Assembly: GCA_964645535.1 (NCBI GenBank)
Contig: CAZYCQ010000041.1
Span: forward strand, 1 to 30,295
DNA: 30,295 bases
Origin: an uncultured archaeon
GTDB taxonomy: Archaea; Asgardarchaeota; Heimdallarchaeia; Heimdallarchaeales; Kariarchaeaceae
Direction: 5' to 3'
Below the pieces are notes generated by a model. The model was not told the origin of the DNA, did no database searches, and was given only the letters and a program-made list of their open reading frames with translations. Of this stretch, positions 17,325-30,294 are shown one piece after another. A program made the position numbers and the translations under genes. Position 1 is the first letter of the stretch, and the number at the start of each line of letters is the position of its first letter.

Positions 17325-18626
17325 TTAGACTGGTTTGAGATGCGACCACTTTTCAAGGGCTTTCCTCAGTGGTTCACTTGTCTTGGCTTTCTCTTCTAAT
17401 GAAATTCCCTCTTTCCATGCTTCAATTGCTTGGATGGTTGCGATCGCTCCTGCTTTGGTACCGTCAGGATGACCATGTATTCCTCCACCAACTTGAAGAG
17501 CCATTTCTGTTGTGTTGTAGATATTAAGGACTTCAGGTAGGATTCCCGGATGCAGGCCTCCCGAAGCAGTTGGAACCGTTTTGTTCTTTCCTGCAAAATC
17601 TTGATCAAGGAACCTTACGCCTTCTCCGGTGACTCGATCTGCAAGCAACATGTTTTTCATGTCAATTACATCCTGCTTAGGCGAATCTAGCTTACCTACT
17701 ACTGTTCCGATGTGGATGTTGTCCACTCCGATCAATCGCATTATTTTTGCAAGAAGGTACATGTTAAGACCATGGGTCTTCAATTTGGTAAAGGTTGCAT
17801 GCATTGCTCTATGCGCATGGATTGCCATATTCAGATCATGGGCGACATCCACCATGGTTTGAACAGCCGCAAATCCGGTGGTCACTACATCAACCATGAA
17901 ATACTTGAATCCATGATCATGGATAAACTGGGCTCGTTTTTCCATCTCTTTGGTTTCAGCTGTCACATTGATGAACGCATCTTTTTTGTCTCCAGTTTCT
18001 GCTTCCACTTGATCCCTTGCCTTGGCCATCTTTTCAACTCGTTCCTTGAAACGGTTGAATTTCTGATTGGTCAGGTTTTCGTCATCCTTGATACAGTCAA
18101 TTCCACCTGTCCAAGCCTCAATTGCCACTTGCACATGCTTGTCGACACTCATTCCTATCTTCGGTTTGGGTACACAGGAAGTCAAAGGACCTTCTTTTCC
18201 AAGGAAGTCCTTGAATGCTTTTGGTCCTTTGTTTGGCCCTTTCAAGCTATTGACGAATTCTTTGGGAAATTGGATGTCCACCAATCGCAATTTCTTGACT
18301 GCTTTCATTCCAAAAACATTTCCGGCCACACCGGAAAGGACTTGTGGCATATTTCCTTCCTCCCAAAGCTCTAATGGATAAGCTATCTTCACAAAGTTGC
18401 CATCTCTCCAATAGGATCTGGCTCTCAATTCAAAAATTTCCGGATCAAGCGTTTCAAGAGTTGTCCAAGTTCCGACAGAGGATTCAGAAGCAATCCTTCC
18501 AATGACATCCTCATCAGTCAATCCTTCTGCTTTTTCATAGTAAAACAATGCAATTAGATCCGAGGATTTTGGTTGGTACGAAAAGTCGATCATGTCATGG
18601 TACCATTCAATCTTTTTGTCAGTCAT
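17325..18626 (-). CDS. rbcL: Form III ribulose-1,5-bisphosphate carboxylase large subunit
   Basis: ESSVGTWT, AGNVFGMK, PKPKIG, carbamylation motif IKDDENLT, HAHRAMH, IHIGT, VGKL, ASGGLHPG and GGGIHGHPDG. Catalytic residues are intact and no rbcS is adjacent. Confidence 0.95.
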   Translation of the reverse strand: MTDKKIEWYHDMIDFSYQPKSSDLIALFYYEKAEGLTDEDVIGRIASESSVGTWTTLETLDPEIFELRARSYWRDGNFVKIAYPLELWEEGNMPQVLSGVAGNVFGMKAVKKLRLVDIQFPKEFVNSLKGPNKGPKAFKDFLGKEGPLTSCVPKPKIGMSVDKHVQVAIEAWTGGIDCIKDDENLTNQKFNRFKERVEKMAKARDQVEAETGDKKDAFINVTAETKEMEKRAQFIHDHGFKYFMVDVVTTGFAAVQTMVDVAHDLNMAIHAHRAMHATFTKLKTHGLNMYLLAKIMRLIGVDNIHIGTVVGKLDSPKQDVIDMKNMLLADRVTGEGVRFLDQDFAGKNKTVPTASGGLHPGILPEVLNIYNTTEMALQVGGGIHGHPDGTKAGAIATIQAIEAWKEGISLEEKAKTSEPLRKALEKWSHLKPV

Positions 18627-23178: not shown

Positions 23179-24054
23179 TCAATGAATTTTTGGAACAAGA
23201 AGATGAACATTCAATTTTCTACAGTATGGACACCTTTCCTCTTTTGTCAACCAACTTTTAATGTGATCTCCATAAACTGAAGAACCACAACAATCTAAGA
23301 TGTACAACTGATCAATTTGTATATCTCTTCGACAGATTATGCAATTGAAATTCCCAAATTTCATAATTGTTTCAATATTAATCTCTTTCATTCTATATCT
23401 GTTTTCGTCATTGATTTGTCCAAGGATATTTTTAATTGACTTGATAAGGTTCAAACTTCTGTTCAGAGCATCACTTAACTGGAAAGAATTCTTTTCGGTT
23501 GTGAGGGTAATTCTCTGTTGGAAGTCGATTCTATTTGTATATAAAAGAATATCATGAAGAACATTGCGAAATTCTGGGTCGGAAAGAAGAGAATTTACAA
23601 GGATAACGTTTGAACATTTAATTGACAGGTCATTACTCAAGTCTGGAAAATCTCCTTTGTTGAAACCAAAAACTTTGTTCAATATACTTCTTTTTTTAAT
23701 AACAAGATCCGTTCGTATTTCCCAGGGAATAGCAAACTGAATTTCAAACATCGAAACTAGAACGTCGTTTTTCTGACTCAATACTTCTCTAACATCAAAA
23801 GTTATTCCCTCTTTTGAAACGATGAAATCCTTAAGAACGGAATAACGAAACATTTTGAAAATTCCCGCCCGATCAATGTTTTTTATATATTGTTCAAAAT
23901 TTGGATCAAATTCAAATCCGTCTGAACTAAGAATTCTGTAGATTGACAGGTTTTTGTAATGGTTATTAAGAACTGAAAAATAATAAATTAACAGAAGAAA
24001 ACCAACGATTAGAAGAATGGCACTGATGAATTGGAACATGAAGCCCCATTCCAT
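23179..24054 (-). CDS. Membrane-anchored RING-finger protein (putative E3 ligase), paralog B
   Basis: N-terminal TM helix. C-terminal CIIC-x13-CC-x4-Y-x2-H-x2-SWL-x5-CPYC. Confidence 0.75.
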   Translation of the reverse strand: MEWGFMFQFISAILLIVGFLLLIYYFSVLNNHYKNLSIYRILSSDGFEFDPNFEQYIKNIDRAGIFKMFRYSVLKDFIVSKEGITFDVREVLSQKNDVLVSMFEIQFAIPWEIRTDLVIKKRSILNKVFGFNKGDFPDLSNDLSIKCSNVILVNSLLSDPEFRNVLHDILLYTNRIDFQQRITLTTEKNSFQLSDALNRSLNLIKSIKNILGQINDENRYRMKEINIETIMKFGNFNCIICRRDIQIDQLYILDCCGSSVYGDHIKSWLTKEERCPYCRKLNVHLLVPKIH

Positions 24055-24124: not shown

Positions 24125-25000
24125 TCAATAACTGTGTGCTATTGGATGCGGATCTAGAAGAACTACGTCTGTTCGTTTACAATAGGGACAACGTGGGTCT
24201 TGGCTCAGCCATCCCAAAATATGCTCTGTATGAGCAACTGATGCACAGCAGTTCAATATTTTCATATTTTGATAAGATGTATTCTTTCGACAAATTACAC
24301 ATTGGAAAGTGAAATTTTCTAATTCTCTCGTGAGCCTTATTTCCTTTACGGTATAACGGACATCACTTTCTACGGTGTTAAGAAGCCTCTGCAAAAGCTG
24401 AGTGAAATTGAGTATGGATTCCAAGGCAAACAATATCCTGTGCCTGTCCTTCGGCACGATAAACGTATTTACCCATCTAATGTCTAGATTCTTTGTATAG
24501 GCCATTACATTTCGTAGCAGACTGAGATTCTGTGGATTGGTCAGTATGCTATTGATAATGAGGAAGTTGGATCCTCTGATATTGAAATCTTTATTCAGAT
24601 GTGAAAAATCTCCGGCATCATATCCAAATATCTTGGACAATAGCCCACGTTTTCGTATTGTTATATCCAGTTGGTTTTTCAGCTTGGGAGGAAATTCAAA
24701 AGTAATCTCATACATTGATTTGGACGTTTCTCCCTGTGTTTCTCTCTTCACTCTTAGTTGAAATGCGATTTGATCCTTCCAAGTCAATATGAATTGGGGT
24801 GGTTTGGTATTGATCCTATCCAACACTGTTCCATTTTGGACTGTTGCGATGTATCTGAGGAAATCATTTGTAAATTGATAACCATAGGAAGCTAAGGTTT
24901 GGAAAAGAAAAACGTTGTCCGAGTGTTCTTTTGATTTTATAAATGCAAAAAAACCAACGATTATGAGAACCATGGTTCCCATAATATAGGCTTCTTCCAT
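24125..25000 (-). CDS. Membrane-anchored RING-finger protein (putative E3 ligase), paralog A
   Basis: N-terminal TM helix. C-terminal CVIC-x13-CC-x4-H-x2-H-x2-GWL-x5-CPYC. Confidence 0.8.
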   Translation of the reverse strand: MEEAYIMGTMVLIIVGFFAFIKSKEHSDNVFLFQTLASYGYQFTNDFLRYIATVQNGTVLDRINTKPPQFILTWKDQIAFQLRVKRETQGETSKSMYEITFEFPPKLKNQLDITIRKRGLLSKIFGYDAGDFSHLNKDFNIRGSNFLIINSILTNPQNLSLLRNVMAYTKNLDIRWVNTFIVPKDRHRILFALESILNFTQLLQRLLNTVESDVRYTVKEIRLTRELENFTFQCVICRKNTSYQNMKILNCCASVAHTEHILGWLSQDPRCPYCKRTDVVLLDPHPIAHSY

Positions 25001-25147: not shown

Positions 25148-25339
25148 ATGGAACTAAACAATCAATCCATTACCACATATCTCTGTCCTGTCTGCGACGG
25201 AGAAAATTCGATTAATGAACAACTCGAAATCGGTGAACTTCTTGACTGTTTTGAGTGTGGAAGTGAGTTGGAGGTAGTAAACACTTCTCCTCTAGAACTA
25301 ATTGAATCCGAAATCGAAGCTGAAGATTGGGGTCAATGA
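25148..25339 (+). CDS. lysW: Amino-group carrier protein LysW/ArgW (C-terminal EDWGQ variant)
   Basis: 63 aa and highly acidic. Zn knuckles CPVC and CFECG, ELEVV..PLEL. Ends GAA GAT TGG GGT CAA TGA (EDWGQ). Confidence 0.93.
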   Translation: MELNNQSITTYLCPVCDGENSINEQLEIGELLDCFECGSELEVVNTSPLELIESEIEAEDWGQ

Positions 25340-25342
25340 AGG

Positions 25343-26206
25343 ATGAAAGTTGCCTTCATTCATTCACTTCTAAGACGTGATGAAAAGCTTCTCATTCATG
25401 AATTTCAGAAGAAAGGCATTCCCTTGGAAAGGATTGATACCAGAAAGGTCAAGTCAGTTGTGGATGACCAAGGGTTTTCGCTTCTGGATGGCAATTCTCT
25501 GTCGTTTGATATCGCCATGGAACGATCCATGGGGATGATGGAGGGATTTCTAACGGCTACCGCTTTGGAGAATATAGGGGTTCCTGTCATCAATTCTTCA
25601 CGGACAATTGCCATTTGTGGAAGCAAAATAGAAACCACTATGGAACTGGCTAAACAGCGTATCCCTCAACCTAAAAGCGGTTGGACAACATCTCCCAATT
25701 CAGCAAAGGAAATTGTTGAGGAAATGGGATATCCGGTTGTCCTTAAACCAATTATAGGTTCATGGGGTAGACTGTTGGCCAAAATCAACGATTCAGATGC
25801 ATTGGAGGCAATCTTGGAACATAAGCAAAGATTGGGTGGTTTGATGCATTCTGTCTTTTATTTTCAGCAATACATCGAAAAAGGCGGAAGAGATATCAGA
25901 GCATTTGTAGTGGGTGATGAATGCATTGCAGCAATTTACAGGAACAGTGACCATTGGATAACGAATACTGCAAGAGGAGGCACTGCCACCAATTGTCCAT
26001 TGAATGAGGAATTGAATGACCTTGCCGTCCGATCTGCTGAAGCTGTCGGAGGTGGAATTGTTGCAGTGGACATCATGGAATCCTCAAAAGGATTTCTTGT
26101 TACCGAAGTCAATGCTACCATGGAATTCAAGAACAGTATTGCCACTACAGGCGTCAATATTCCTGAAAAAATGGTCAACTATGTGATAGAGCAGGCGAGG
26201 CGATAG
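25343..26206 (+). CDS. lysX: LysW--alpha-aminoadipate ligase (RimK/ATP-grasp)
   Basis: [69 protein letters not shown]. Confidence 0.93.
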
Positions 26207-26208
26207 AA

Positions 26209-27228
26209 ATGGTTACAGTTTCAATTATTGGAGGATCTGGATTTGTGGGAGGAGAATTGCTTAGAATCCTTCTGGGACATCCTGAAGTGGAAATTGTACA
26301 GGTTACCTCAGAAAGATTTTCCGGTAGCTATCTCAAAACAGTCCATCCACATTTGAGGGGAAGAACTCAATTAAAATTTGAAAGTGCATCCCATCTCAAG
26401 GATGTGGATGCCATGTTCTTGGCTCTACCTCATGGATATTCATCAAATCGTATCACTGAATTTGATGACCATGCAGAAAAGATCATTGACCTATCTTCAG
26501 ATTTTCGGTTTGCTTCTCCCGAAACCTATAGCAAATGGTATGGCAAGGATCACCCGAATTCTGCATTCCTTGAAAAATTCGTTTATGGTCTTCCTGAACT
26601 TTGGAGAAACGAGATCCGCGATGCAGATTATGTTGCCGTTCCTGGATGCAATGCAACGATTTCCATTCTCTCACTGTTTCCTTTGAGAGACCTGATCAGA
26701 AATGTGACAATAAATGCGACTGTAGGGACTTCTGAAGGTGGAAGAACCCATTCAGAAGCATCACACCATCCGATCAGATCGGGAAGCATGAGAACATATC
26801 GTCCAGTTCTTCATCGTCATATCGGAGAAATCGAGGAACAAATCCAAGCAAGTGGAATCGCTTTCAGTGCAACATCTGTGGACATTGTCAGAGGAGCAAT
26901 GGTGAATATCCATGTACAAACGGACCGCTTCCTTACCGAAAAGGATCTTTGGAAGATTTATCGAAGACAATACGGTGCTGAACCTTTTGTAAGGTTGATC
27001 AATGAGAGAAGGGGAATTTTCAGATATCCCGATCCAAGACTTGTTGCAGGAACAAATTTTGCAGATATTGGCTTTGTTATTGATCCCCATACCGGTGGAA
27101 TCGTGGTTATCGGTGCCATTGACAATCTAATGAAAGGAGCAGCGGGACAGTCAGTCCAAGCGTTCAATCTCATGAACGGATTTGAGGAAACATTGGGACT
27201 TGACTTCCATCCAATTTTTCCATTGTAG
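26209..27228 (+). CDS. lysY: [LysW]-aminoadipyl/glutamyl-phosphate reductase (ArgC family)
   Basis: IIGGSGFVGGELLRIL, VHPHLRG, LALPHG, IDLSSDFR, VYGLPEL, catalytic Cys in PGCNAT, SHHP.RS, HRH..EI, AIDNLMKGAAGQ. Confidence 0.92.
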   Translation: MVTVSIIGGSGFVGGELLRILLGHPEVEIVQVTSERFSGSYLKTVHPHLRGRTQLKFESASHLKDVDAMFLALPHGYSSNRITEFDDHAEKIIDLSSDFRFASPETYSKWYGKDHPNSAFLEKFVYGLPELWRNEIRDADYVAVPGCNATISILSLFPLRDLIRNVTINATVGTSEGGRTHSEASHHPIRSGSMRTYRPVLHRHIGEIEEQIQASGIAFSATSVDIVRGAMVNIHVQTDRFLTEKDLWKIYRRQYGAEPFVRLINERRGIFRYPDPRLVAGTNFADIGFVIDPHTGGIVVIGAIDNLMKGAAGQSVQAFNLMNGFEETLGLDFHPIFPL

Positions 27229-27238
27229 GTGATAAATA

Positions 27239-27919
27239 ATGTGCAGATTATTGAGCGGCAAGTTTCCCTATCCAATACAGATTAATTCGATTCTAGAACA
27301 GTTCGCAGAAGATTGCAGATCAAGCAAGGAATTTCAAGGACATGGATGGGGTATTACCTATCTGACCAATGGACAGTGGATCACCCGGAAATCCATCCAA
27401 CCAATATGGGAATCCCTTCCCGAAGAGCCGATATATACTTCTTCCTTTCTGGTTCATGCAAGATCCGCTTTCAGAGATGCAGGAATCGTCATAGAAAACA
27501 ATATGCCTTTTGAAAACGACAGGTTTGTGTTTGCATTCAATGGTGAACTGAGAAAAGTTAGGTTAAACCTTCCTGGCTCAACAGGTGCCAAAAAGATCTT
27601 CAATTTCTTTCTGAGAAAGCAGGAACCCTCGATTCTACTCAGATGGTCAAAAGTTGCTGCAATTCTCAAAAGGAGAAGTGAATACATCAGGGCGATGAAT
27701 GTCATATTGATTGATAAGGAAACCAATCTTCATTATGCCTATTCCCATTATAATGAGGATCCTGAATATTTTAGGCTCCATAGAATGGCAAGTGGTGGAT
27801 TTGAGTTGATAAGCTCGTTTCCCATTGACAGAAGGCTGTTTATTAATCTTCGGGGTGAGGAACGGCCGAGAATCGTTTACAATGCGGTTCTTGCCAATCA
27901 GGGAATTGAGGTGATCTGA
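27239..27919 (+). CDS. Class II glutamine-amidotransferase-fold Ntn hydrolase (EgtC/YafJ/Dug3-like)
   Basis: N-terminal MCRL (Cys nucleophile), HGWG, HARSA, NNMPF, FAFNG. SD-like AGGTGA upstream. Translationally coupled to the next gene (TGATG). Confidence 0.85.
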   Translation: MCRLLSGKFPYPIQINSILEQFAEDCRSSKEFQGHGWGITYLTNGQWITRKSIQPIWESLPEEPIYTSSFLVHARSAFRDAGIVIENNMPFENDRFVFAFNGELRKVRLNLPGSTGAKKIFNFFLRKQEPSILLRWSKVAAILKRRSEYIRAMNVILIDKETNLHYAYSHYNEDPEYFRLHRMASGGFELISSFPIDRRLFINLRGEERPRIVYNAVLANQGIEVI

Positions 27920-29982
27920 TGAACGTCTTGAAGGTAGGTGGAGGTCAGTCCATCAATTTTGATGCAATAGCTGATTTCATTCGGAATTTGGGAGAGCCGA
28001 CAATTGTTGTTCTGGGTGCAAACAGTGTCAGAAATCAACTGGCATCCCAGCTGGGGATCACTCCCAAAATTCTGACCAGTGCTTCGGGTGTCTCAAGTGT
28101 ATATACTGATGATCAAATGATTGATCTTATTGGTGCTGCATACTCGGGAATTAGAAGAAACCGATTTGTCGCAACCTGCCAAAAAAATGGCATAAACGCC
28201 ATCGGTCTTTCCGGCTTGGATGCCCGGTTGATTGAAGGAAGAAGAACCAAAGGCATCCGGGCCATCGAGAACGGAAAGAAACGAGTTGTCCGGGATCTAA
28301 GTGGAAAACCAAATGAATTGAATGCCGGGTTGCTTGAAAGTCTTTTGGCAATGGATCTTGTTCCGGTGCTTACCATTCCAATCATGGATGAGCATGGCAT
28401 CCCTCTCAACTCGGAAAATGATGACATTGTTGCATTGATCGCCGAGAAAATGAAGGTTCACCGTGTCATTCATTTCATTGAGGCAGAAGGATTGCTTGGA
28501 ACAAATGGTCGTCCCATCTCTGAATTGGGAAAAGAAGGTCTTTTGGAAATGATGGATGCCTTGGATGGAAGAATCAAACGAAAACTGATGTCGTTGCTCA
28601 GAATTCTTGACAAAGGTATTGAAATTCGCATTATGGACGGAAGAAGTTCCAATGTAGTGGAAGATTTCCATTTGGGAAAGGGAACCATCATTGCCAATGA
28701 GGTGCCCTCCAACAAAAAACGTACAAGACCTGAAACCCAAACAATGGTTCTTACCTCCAAAAAATCAGAAATATACTTGGAAAGGGCAGAAGGCATATAT
28801 GTATACGACCACAATGGAAAACGGTATCTTGATTGCAGTGGAGGATGGGGTGTGGCCCTTCTCGGCCATCGGCACTCCAATGTCACTCAGGCCATGATCC
28901 AACAGCTCAGTAGGATTATGACTGCCCCAATCAACCACAGAAATTCCACAAGGGAAGAATTTGTAGATTTCCTTTTGTCATTGGTTCCCTCTCCTCTCAA
29001 CAGGGTGTTTCTCTCGAATTCAGGTACTGAAGCTGTTGAAGCCGCTTTGAAATTTGCAATCTGTACAACCGGACGGTCAAAAATTGTTTCCCATGTCAAG
29101 GGCTTCCATGGAAGAACTCTAGGGTCTCTTTCAGTCACGCATAATCCTCATTTTCGCCGACCTTTTGAAGATCTTCTGAATCCGGACAGAATAACCTTTA
29201 TCCCCCTTAATAATCTTGAGCTTGCCAGAAAATCAATCTCAAATGAAACTGCCGCGGTGATCATTGAAGCAATTCAAGGCGAAGGCGGTGTGAATCAAGC
29301 CTCTGATGAGTATCTTCAAGGCTTGAGAGAAATCTGCAATCACACAGGAACCCTTCTTATCATCGATGAGATCCAGACTGGATTGGGAAGAACTGGGAAT
29401 CTGTTTGCATTTGAAAAATCTGGGATTGTTCCCGACATTCTCTGTCTCGCAAAAGGATTGGGCGGTGGATTTCCCATAGGTGCAACGATTGTGTCTGAAA
29501 AGGTTGACGTAGCATATGGAATGCATGGGTCAACATTTGGGGGAAATCCCATGGCCTGTGCAGCTGGGTTGGCAACTCTCCAGACATTGGTCTCCGATGG
29601 ATTGATCGAAAATGCTCAAATACAGGGTGATAACCTACTGAGGAGATTGAAGGAACTTTCTCGTGAGTTTCCTCTTATCCGTGAAATACGAGGAAGAGGT
29701 CTGATGATTGCAATTGTATTAAGAAGATCTCATAAAACCCTTCTTGGACATCTCCTTGATGAAGGAATCCTCTCCATCCCGACCGGCCGAAACATCATTC
29801 GCCTGTTGCCTCCGCTTACCATTTCAAGTGCCGAGATCGATCAGATTGTCTGTGGCCTCAGAAATGCCCTTCTGAAGACAAATGACAAGGTTTTCAAAAG
29901 AACAAATACCATAGAAATGCATACAAATGGGACGGAAGACCAATTCCGATGCAGTGGCAAAACCTCTGGAATCATTGGATGA
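27919..29982 (+). CDS. lysZ-lysJ: Fused [LysW]-aminoadipate kinase (LysZ/ArgB) and [LysW]-aminoadipate semialdehyde aminotransferase (LysJ/ArgD)
   Basis: N-terminal about 260 aa: VLKVGG, SGVSSVYTD, AIGLSGLD, DLSGK, LNSEND, GRIKRKL, GTII. C-terminal part: YLDCSGGWGV..LGH, NSGTEAVEAA.K, GFHGRT, EAIQGEGG, DEIQTG.GRTG, PLP Lys in LAKGLGGG, HGSTFGGNP, IRLLPPL. SD-like GAGGTGA upstream. Confidence 0.9.
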   Translation: MNVLKVGGGQSINFDAIADFIRNLGEPTIVVLGANSVRNQLASQLGITPKILTSASGVSSVYTDDQMIDLIGAAYSGIRRNRFVATCQKNGINAIGLSGLDARLIEGRRTKGIRAIENGKKRVVRDLSGKPNELNAGLLESLLAMDLVPVLTIPIMDEHGIPLNSENDDIVALIAEKMKVHRVIHFIEAEGLLGTNGRPISELGKEGLLEMMDALDGRIKRKLMSLLRILDKGIEIRIMDGRSSNVVEDFHLGKGTIIANEVPSNKKRTRPETQTMVLTSKKSEIYLERAEGIYVYDHNGKRYLDCSGGWGVALLGHRHSNVTQAMIQQLSRIMTAPINHRNSTREEFVDFLLSLVPSPLNRVFLSNSGTEAVEAALKFAICTTGRSKIVSHVKGFHGRTLGSLSVTHNPHFRRPFEDLLNPDRITFIPLNNLELARKSISNETAAVIIEAIQGEGGVNQASDEYLQGLREICNHTGTLLIIDEIQTGLGRTGNLFAFEKSGIVPDILCLAKGLGGGFPIGATIVSEKVDVAYGMHGSTFGGNPMACAAGLATLQTLVSDGLIENAQIQGDNLLRRLKELSREFPLIREIRGRGLMIAIVLRRSHKTLLGHLLDEGILSIPTGRNIIRLLPPLTISSAEIDQIVCGLRNALLKTNDKVFKRTNTIEMHTNGTEDQFRCSGKTSGIIG

Positions 29983-30003
29983 AAGAAAAAAAACATATGG
30001 CTG

Positions 30004-30026
30004 GGCTCCTGGTTTCGGTTGGAGCC
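30004..30026. terminator. Possible hairpin between convergent transcription units
   Basis: GGCTCC-N11-GGAGCC inverted repeat. An A-rich run at about 29982-29993 gives a T-run downstream on the - strand. Confidence 0.3.
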
Positions 30027-30102
30027 GTTTCTATAATTGCTATCGCCTGAGAATCTATCAAAATCACTAATTCCTTGAAAAATACCACAAGAAAGAACAT
30101 GA

Positions 30103-30294
30103 TTAGTTTTGGCTGTTTTCAGGTTCTAGGGTTCCACACTCGATAAGGGAGGTTTTTCCATACTCTTCTTCTATGATCTGTTTTACTTTGTAGTTTTCCT
30201 TTCGAAGCCATCTCCCTAAAATCAACGCAATCGGGGTTGGTCCTTTGAAATATATTCCTATCTCCTTACATTCCTTCGACTTTATTATTTTGAA
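30103..30294 (-). CDS. 3' end of a gene running off the window; C-terminus resembles a SAVED domain
   Basis: Manual translation, not in the ORF track: FKIIKSKECKEIGIYFKGPTPIALILGRWLRKENYKVKQIIEEEYGKTSLIECGTLEPENSQN*. IGIYFKGP..IA..LGR.L matches the SAVED-like pattern ihlF.agP.slAf.lG..l. Confidence 0.5.
   Translation of the reverse strand, partial: FKIIKSKECKEIGIYFKGPTPIALILGRWLRKENYKVKQIIEEEYGKTSLIECGTLEPENSQN

Follow-up and report, generated by a model that had tools for sequence, protein, structure and literature searches.

The amino-group carrier protein LysW ends in EDWGE in the known LysW pathway, and in the characterised systems the ligase LysX uses its gamma-carboxylate (PMC10433800). 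Lysine is released from LysW-gamma-lysine by the LysK/ArgE-type [LysW]-lysine hydrolase (TIGR01902, NF003367) of Thermus thermophilus, Sulfolobus and Thermococcus kodakarensis, a metal-dependent enzyme of the M20 family whose partners are LysW, X, Y, Z and J and whose gene normally lies after lysJ. In the analysis of the Caldithrix abyssi genome, LysWXZYJ and Hcs were described without LysK, and non-orthologous displacement was suspected (PMC5317091). Here we analyse a stretch of 30,295 nucleotides (nt) from an uncultured archaeon of the Kariarchaeaceae (Asgardarchaeota), contig CAZYCQ010000041.1 (C41), referred to below as the window, which is the entire contig within a 3.6-Mb genome of 89.4% completeness. 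The closest named homologues come from Candidatus Heimdallarchaeota, in keeping with an Asgard origin. It carries a LysW operon that encodes, instead of LysK, a cysteine hydrolase of the N-terminal nucleophile (Ntn) type. We propose, with a probability of roughly 0.8, that this Ntn protein is a non-orthologous replacement of LysK that would release lysine from LysW-gamma-lysine. It appears to work like LysK, is built like EgtC of the ergothioneine pathway, and is a member of neither family. Our literature search, which had most subscription papers outside its reach, returned no description of the Ntn enzyme or of a LysW ending in Gln, and neither LysW nor an amidotransferase is mentioned in GapMind 2026 (PMC13759103); Ntn-dependent release is most probably a previously undescribed final step of the LysW lysine pathway.

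The five genes of the operon (Table 1) are separated by 3, 2 and 10 nt from lysW to the Ntn gene, and the stop codon of the latter overlaps the start of lysZJ by 1 nt (TGATG). In the fused product of lysZJ, the kinase spans residues 3-240 and the class III aminotransferase residues 284-651. Family scans of these genes detected no M20 gene among them, and downstream of lysZJ the relatives have unrelated genes rather than lysK. The initial annotation, made from the sequence alone, had described just such a tightly coupled operon lacking lysK, with a convergent gene downstream, and the coordinates, spacing and family scans confirm it, the convergent gene being a 5'-open reading frame. The LysX specificity residues (F188-I198-T209-N264/S265, in a register fixed by residue spacing and by alignment among the sequences of this analysis) are of the alpha-aminoadipate (LysX) type, following the F-I-T-NS signature defined in Table 1 of PMC12998189. 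The genome contains a single lysW copy, which differs from the published EDWGE in that it encodes EDWGQ, with CAA as the last codon.

The distribution of the Ntn gene is a pattern of non-orthologous displacement. Retrieval through this gene yielded 163 loci (159 + 4), its closest relatives, and in all of them it adjoins lysX/Y/Z/J genes, almost always in the order lysX-lysY-Ntn-lysZ-lysJ and often together with homocitrate synthase (HCS) or the whole upstream route; within the locus sequence examined, none of the 163 encodes an M20 peptidase. The Calditrichota loci of this analysis carry the Ntn gene as well (the genome of C. abyssi itself is known to us from the paper only). Likewise, no protein passes the TIGR01902 cut-off in any of 50 genomes drawn from this set. 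Because loci should not be chosen by the feature that is counted, a second sample was drawn through LysX, blind to the release gene, from Asgard archaea, the phylum of the Woesearchaeote, Gemmatimonadota and one class of Bacteroidota. Of these 112 loci, 51 encode LysK as the sole release enzyme and 47 the Ntn protein; no locus has both, and the 14 that have neither are mostly contig-end cuts or orphan genes. When all loci are pooled, 211 and 54 contain one release enzyme alone and none contains both. In the phylum of the Woesearchaeote (401 genomes), all 13 LysX-positive genomes are of the Ntn type, and among 400 Asgard genomes strong members of the Ntn family (>150 bits on the family profile, as for operon members, versus <80 bits for generic GATase_4 relatives) are found in seven, all LysX-positive. 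In one Asgard locus (L258:2770-7962, genome G305), organized as lysW(Gln)-X-Y-short HCS fragment-Z-J-Ntn, the Ntn gene, here divergent, lies after lysJ, the usual place of LysK. The links to lysW clusters and to the absence of lysK anticipated in the initial annotation are both borne out by these counts.

In five other Ntn-type operons (L014, L280, L285, L286, L287), two tandem lysX/argX paralogues with atypical specificity motifs are present, which suggests that the enzyme may also release ornithine there. In a Binatia locus (L039), the lysY-Ntn-lysZ/J block is duplicated, by genuine duplication or as an assembly artefact.

The gene content of the genome in which the window resides is compatible with this proposal. 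The best LysK (TIGR01902) score genome-wide, at 89.4% completeness, is 93 bits against a cut-off of 163.1, and the most LysK-like of the seven M20 matches is a generic ArgE/DapE protein. Neither dapB, lysA, ilvC nor argG was found in the same assembly. Elsewhere in the genome, there are one HCS/LeuA-like gene (below all cut-offs), a large subunit of the HacA family that passes its cut-off, a small subunit and a LeuB/HICDH-like gene, which are probably not involved in leucine synthesis because ilvC was not found. These absences, together with the HCS-, HacAB- and HICDH-like genes, point to lysine as the likely product of the operon, which is probably the only lysine route in this genome. Arginine is rejected as the product here in view of the LysX motif, the failure to find argG and an argH-like match of only 33 bits.

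Several observations weigh against LysK replacement. The Asgard genome G305 holds, apart from its Ntn operon, a separate LysK operon (L206, with two lysW copies). The locus counts are not independent because the genomes are related and the loci retrieved through the Ntn gene are its nearest relatives, and the LysK-type sample is small, Asgard-heavy and without Chloroflexota, Deinococcota and Thermoproteota. One M20 protein of the present genome passes the ArgE/DapE cut-off (TIGR01910, 267 bits) and could act in trans, and the completeness of 89.4% bears on the absence of LysK. A separate objection concerns only a side activity of the Ntn enzyme on the Gln end of the carrier (see below): Gln-ended LysW occurs with LysK and without the Ntn family, so such carriers may be made usable in some other way.

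At the sequence level, the Ntn protein is only remotely similar to characterised proteins. It matches GATase_4 (PF13230) under the cut-off (E = 2e-4; 20.7 bits versus 23), many of its homologues carry this domain, and the EgtC profile TIGR03442 yields 20 bits versus a cut-off of 218.65. It has no M20 match, and no egt genes lie near its gene, the neighbourhood being lysWXYZJ. A PDB search with the single sequence returned only noise; a search with the family profile matched EgtC and 3mdn. The AlphaFold2 model (pLDDT 92.8) retrieves EgtC as the top Foldseek hit (TM 0.74, E 2e-9), followed by the glutaminase domains of GlmS (TM 0.69) and PurF. EgtC (PDB 4zfj, 4zfk, 4zfl) is a stand-alone protein of the class II glutamine amidotransferase (GATase) fold with an N-terminal Cys, which removes glutamate by gamma-glutamyl amide hydrolysis (PMC5790434). 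The cleavage of a gamma-glutamyl to alpha-amino amide is the reaction proposed here for the Ntn protein; the two proteins differ in sequence (about 14% identity) and in that the proposed Ntn substrate is protein-bound.

The fold, Cys1, the HxR Arg and the Asn-Gly oxyanion hole are shared with GATase_4/YafJ/Dug3-like proteins and with the GlmS and PurF glutaminase domains. In 124 family members, the Met-Cys-Arg start is universal, and C2, R75, N101, G102 and G116, as well as Arg3, are kept at 99-100%; the Cys after Met, the predicted fold, R75 and N101-G102 agree with the Cys1 class II amidotransferase assignment of the initial annotation. Additional basic positions are conserved at 114, 119, 126 and 151, of which 114 is Ser in the window copy. 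Class II GATases bind the free alpha-amino group through the Asp of a TDSE/TDTE motif. Generic GATase_4 members keep TDSE, whereas in the Ntn family this Asp is replaced by the invariant Gly116, which would fit a peptide-bound gamma-glutamyl substrate, that is, Glu or Gln with a peptide-bonded amino group, the situation at the LysW end. As judged from these residues, the active site would fit lysine release and carrier deamidation equally. The family is coherent and comprises at most 2441 protein clusters, some of which may be generic relatives; in a search limited to homologues of near-equal length, none carries a synthase domain. One same-genus Ntn gene (G054 C367:7165-7831) is matched in two frames, owing to a frameshift or an assembly error. 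A complex of the Ntn protein with LysW is predicted at 0.59 versus 0.02 for the best control, with at least 98% of contacts in agreement between runs and a partner pLDDT of at least 82. Of the 80 solved and 110 mismatched pairs used for calibration, 58 and 2, respectively, attain the mark, and the range at or under 0.60 contains only seven of these solved pairs along with both mismatches, so that the prediction lends weak support to the partnership.

We infer the catalysis from gene content and order, the predicted EgtC-like fold, the conserved catalytic residues and the exclusion of LysK. After removal of Met1, the exposed Cys would serve as the N-terminal nucleophile and attack the gamma-carboxamide between the terminal Glu of the carrier and the alpha-amino group of lysine. 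Asn101-Gly102 would form the oxyanion hole and Arg75 would grip the terminal residue by its free alpha-carboxylate, roles that we assume by analogy with GlmS and PurF, and without the amino-binding Asp there would be space for the LysW backbone to continue. The thioester would then be hydrolysed, yielding free lysine and regenerating Glu-ended LysW. This scheme assigns to the Ntn protein the same reaction and pathway slot as LysK, from which it differs by an unrelated fold and by a Cys nucleophile in place of a metal-dependent mechanism.

The Gln end of the carrier is a separate problem. It is common to all five relatives from the same family that carry the operon, so a sequencing error is ruled out. 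If the gamma-carboxylate is used, a one-time conversion of Gln to Glu would be needed before LysX loading, and since the only carrier of this genome is encoded with Gln, something must perform it. The Ntn enzyme is the simplest candidate, and we give even odds to such a side activity. A precedent of sorts is the actinobacterial Pup/Dop system, in which a small tag encoded with a terminal Gln is converted to the Glu form and one enzyme both deamidates it and cleaves off the partner joined through the gamma link; Dop, unlike the Ntn protein, adopts a glutamine-synthetase-like fold, and the likeness is an analogy only.

Across genomes, the Gln end is enriched with the Ntn gene and is not confined to it. 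Among the 133 distinct carriers of Ntn operons, 97 (73%) end in Glu and 36 in Gln, compared with 4 Gln-ended ones among 35 carriers of LysK operons; in the LysX-first sample, the figures are 12 of 45 versus 4 of 37, those four being one lineage. The idea that Gln-ended LysW is exclusive to Ntn operons is ruled out, as an absolute rule, by at least three archaeal lineages that pair it with LysK. In one Asgard genus (G118-G121), the operon is lysW(Gln)-X-Y-Z-J-K, with a LysK of 296.7 bits and no Ntn-family member in these genomes, sister genomes having Glu-ended LysW. A Nezhaarchaeales locus (L329:8001-14145) is organized as argG-argH-lysW(Gln)-X-Y-Z-J-K (LysK 276.9 bits), and a locus labelled Bathyarchaeia (L331:1189-6542) combines Gln-ended LysW with a LysK of 256.7 bits. 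Three further, truncated Gln operons lack the Ntn gene at the lysY-lysZ junction; like L329 and L331, they were selected for the Gln end.

It is nearly an even prospect that Gln ends become usable without the Ntn enzyme, through a different deamidase, spontaneous deamidation at a slow rate, a secondary activity common to LysW release enzymes or loading of the alpha-carboxylate, with the Ntn protein only releasing lysine; this estimate concerns the Gln question alone and is compatible with LysK replacement. The operons just described, in which an intact-looking LysK accompanies Gln-ended LysW, speak for it, as does genome G1296, in which the single LysW is Gln-ended and no Ntn member was found. 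Its operon is, however, cut by a contig end, and LysK was not found there either. In G118, G119 and G121 (G120 was left out of this check), the Gln copy may be dispensable because a second, Glu-ended carrier is present, and the Nezhaarchaeales and Bathyarchaeia cases are known from operons rather than whole genomes. We also list on the opposing side that the LysX specificity motif is identical in Gln and Glu operons and that the end state changes 13 times on the Ntn tree, at least 4 of them forced by well-supported branches, which fits built-in tolerance. A broader idea is more tentative, namely that one Ntn enzyme both uncaps Gln carriers and releases lysine, and that a gene-encoded amide cap, gained repeatedly and present also in some LysK operons, is a general device unrecognised in published work, where EDWGE is strict.

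Very unlikely, in our estimate, is an editing or recycling role, in which the Ntn hydrolase would strip mis-loaded or stalled adducts (e.g., LysW-gamma-Glu) while an unlinked M20 enzyme releases lysine. The chemistry and active-site pattern would be identical, this genome has generic M20 genes, and LysX enzymes show promiscuity towards Glu (PMC12998189). Such a role leaves the strict exclusion of LysK unexplained, and some Ntn genomes (e.g., G401, G415, G423) have a single weak M20 candidate.

Least probable is a dedicated maturase that converts the terminal Gln to Glu while a generic unlinked M20 enzyme releases lysine: the Gln end of the sole carrier here, the glutaminase chemistry native to the class II GATase fold, the Gln enrichment and the Gln-ended LysW in 6 of 6 other Asgard genomes with the Ntn operon would suit it, but the Glu-ended majority of Ntn operons keeps the gene with invariant catalytic residues, a maturase would have no need to exclude LysK, Gln-ended carriers occur in LysK operons that lack the Ntn gene, and no Ntn residue is diagnostic of Gln versus Glu carriers, the signals being at the level of lineages.

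The three possibilities left by the initial annotation fare differently. Lysine release is strongly supported by the genome context, that is, LysK exclusion together with the EgtC fold and the active-site pattern. Carrier maturation is not the main job of the family because most carriers in Ntn operons are already Glu-ended, and the expected link with EDWGQ stands as an enrichment only. Of the combined function, deamidation stays plausible as a side activity, the sole carrier here being Gln-ended, and falls as a main one.

If LysK replacement is correct, the missing final step of lysine biosynthesis would be filled in an operon type that spans Ignavibacteria, Calditrichota, Binatia, Gemmatimonadota, some Gammaproteobacteria, Woesearchaeota and Heimdall-type Asgard archaea. 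An unnamed GATase_4 subfamily would gain a function, auxotrophy calls would be corrected, and amino-group carrier proteins would have a second unloading chemistry. It also raises the question of how Gln-ended carriers are loaded and work.

Table 1. Coordinates of the LysW operon and adjoining features in the window, and of LysK operons with Gln-ended LysW in other genomes (aa, amino acids)
Feature	Position	Strand	Description
lysW	25148-25339	+	63 aa, four Cys, Zn-ribbon type; Zn_ribbon_LysW 45.6 bits
lysX, ATP-grasp ligase	25343-26206	+	TIGR02144 346.5 bits (cut-off 275.6)
lysY, ArgC-family reductase	26209-27228	+	TIGR01850 argC/lysY 359.8 bits (cut-off 233.6)
Ntn cysteine hydrolase gene	27239-27919	+	226 aa, Met-Cys-Arg start; proposed LysW-gamma-lysine hydrolase
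lysZ-lysJ fusion	27919-29982	+	687 aa; AA_kinase and Aminotran_3 matches
Convergent open reading frame, 5'-open	30103-30294	convergent	contig end; no Pfam match
LysK operons with Gln-ended LysW, G118-G121	L209:369-5564, L219, L288, L289

The lysZ-lysJ fusion is common to same-genus relatives and apparently occurs also in two Gemmatimonadota loci (L010, L066). A 120-bp segment that overlaps its 3' end (29951-30070) is 82% identical to positions 2368-2486 of contig C100 and may be a small repeat, which would explain why the fusion protein is about 20 aa longer than those of relatives (667-669 aa). A scan for promoters and terminators gave results at chance level.

In a same-genus relative (L001/L202), a block of genes for an AMP-binding synthetase, a helicase and a WD40 protein directly follows lysZJ; in the window it lies at the opposite contig end (1588-8943), a local rearrangement. 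Divergent from lysW are two tandem genes on the minus strand (23179-24054 and 24125-25000), each encoding a 291-aa protein that has a hydrophobic segment at its N terminus and weakly matches a RING finger at its C terminus (E about 1e-4), possibly membrane-anchored E3-ligase-like proteins. The window also carries a gene of the RuBisCO large-subunit family (17325-18626, minus strand; 433 aa).

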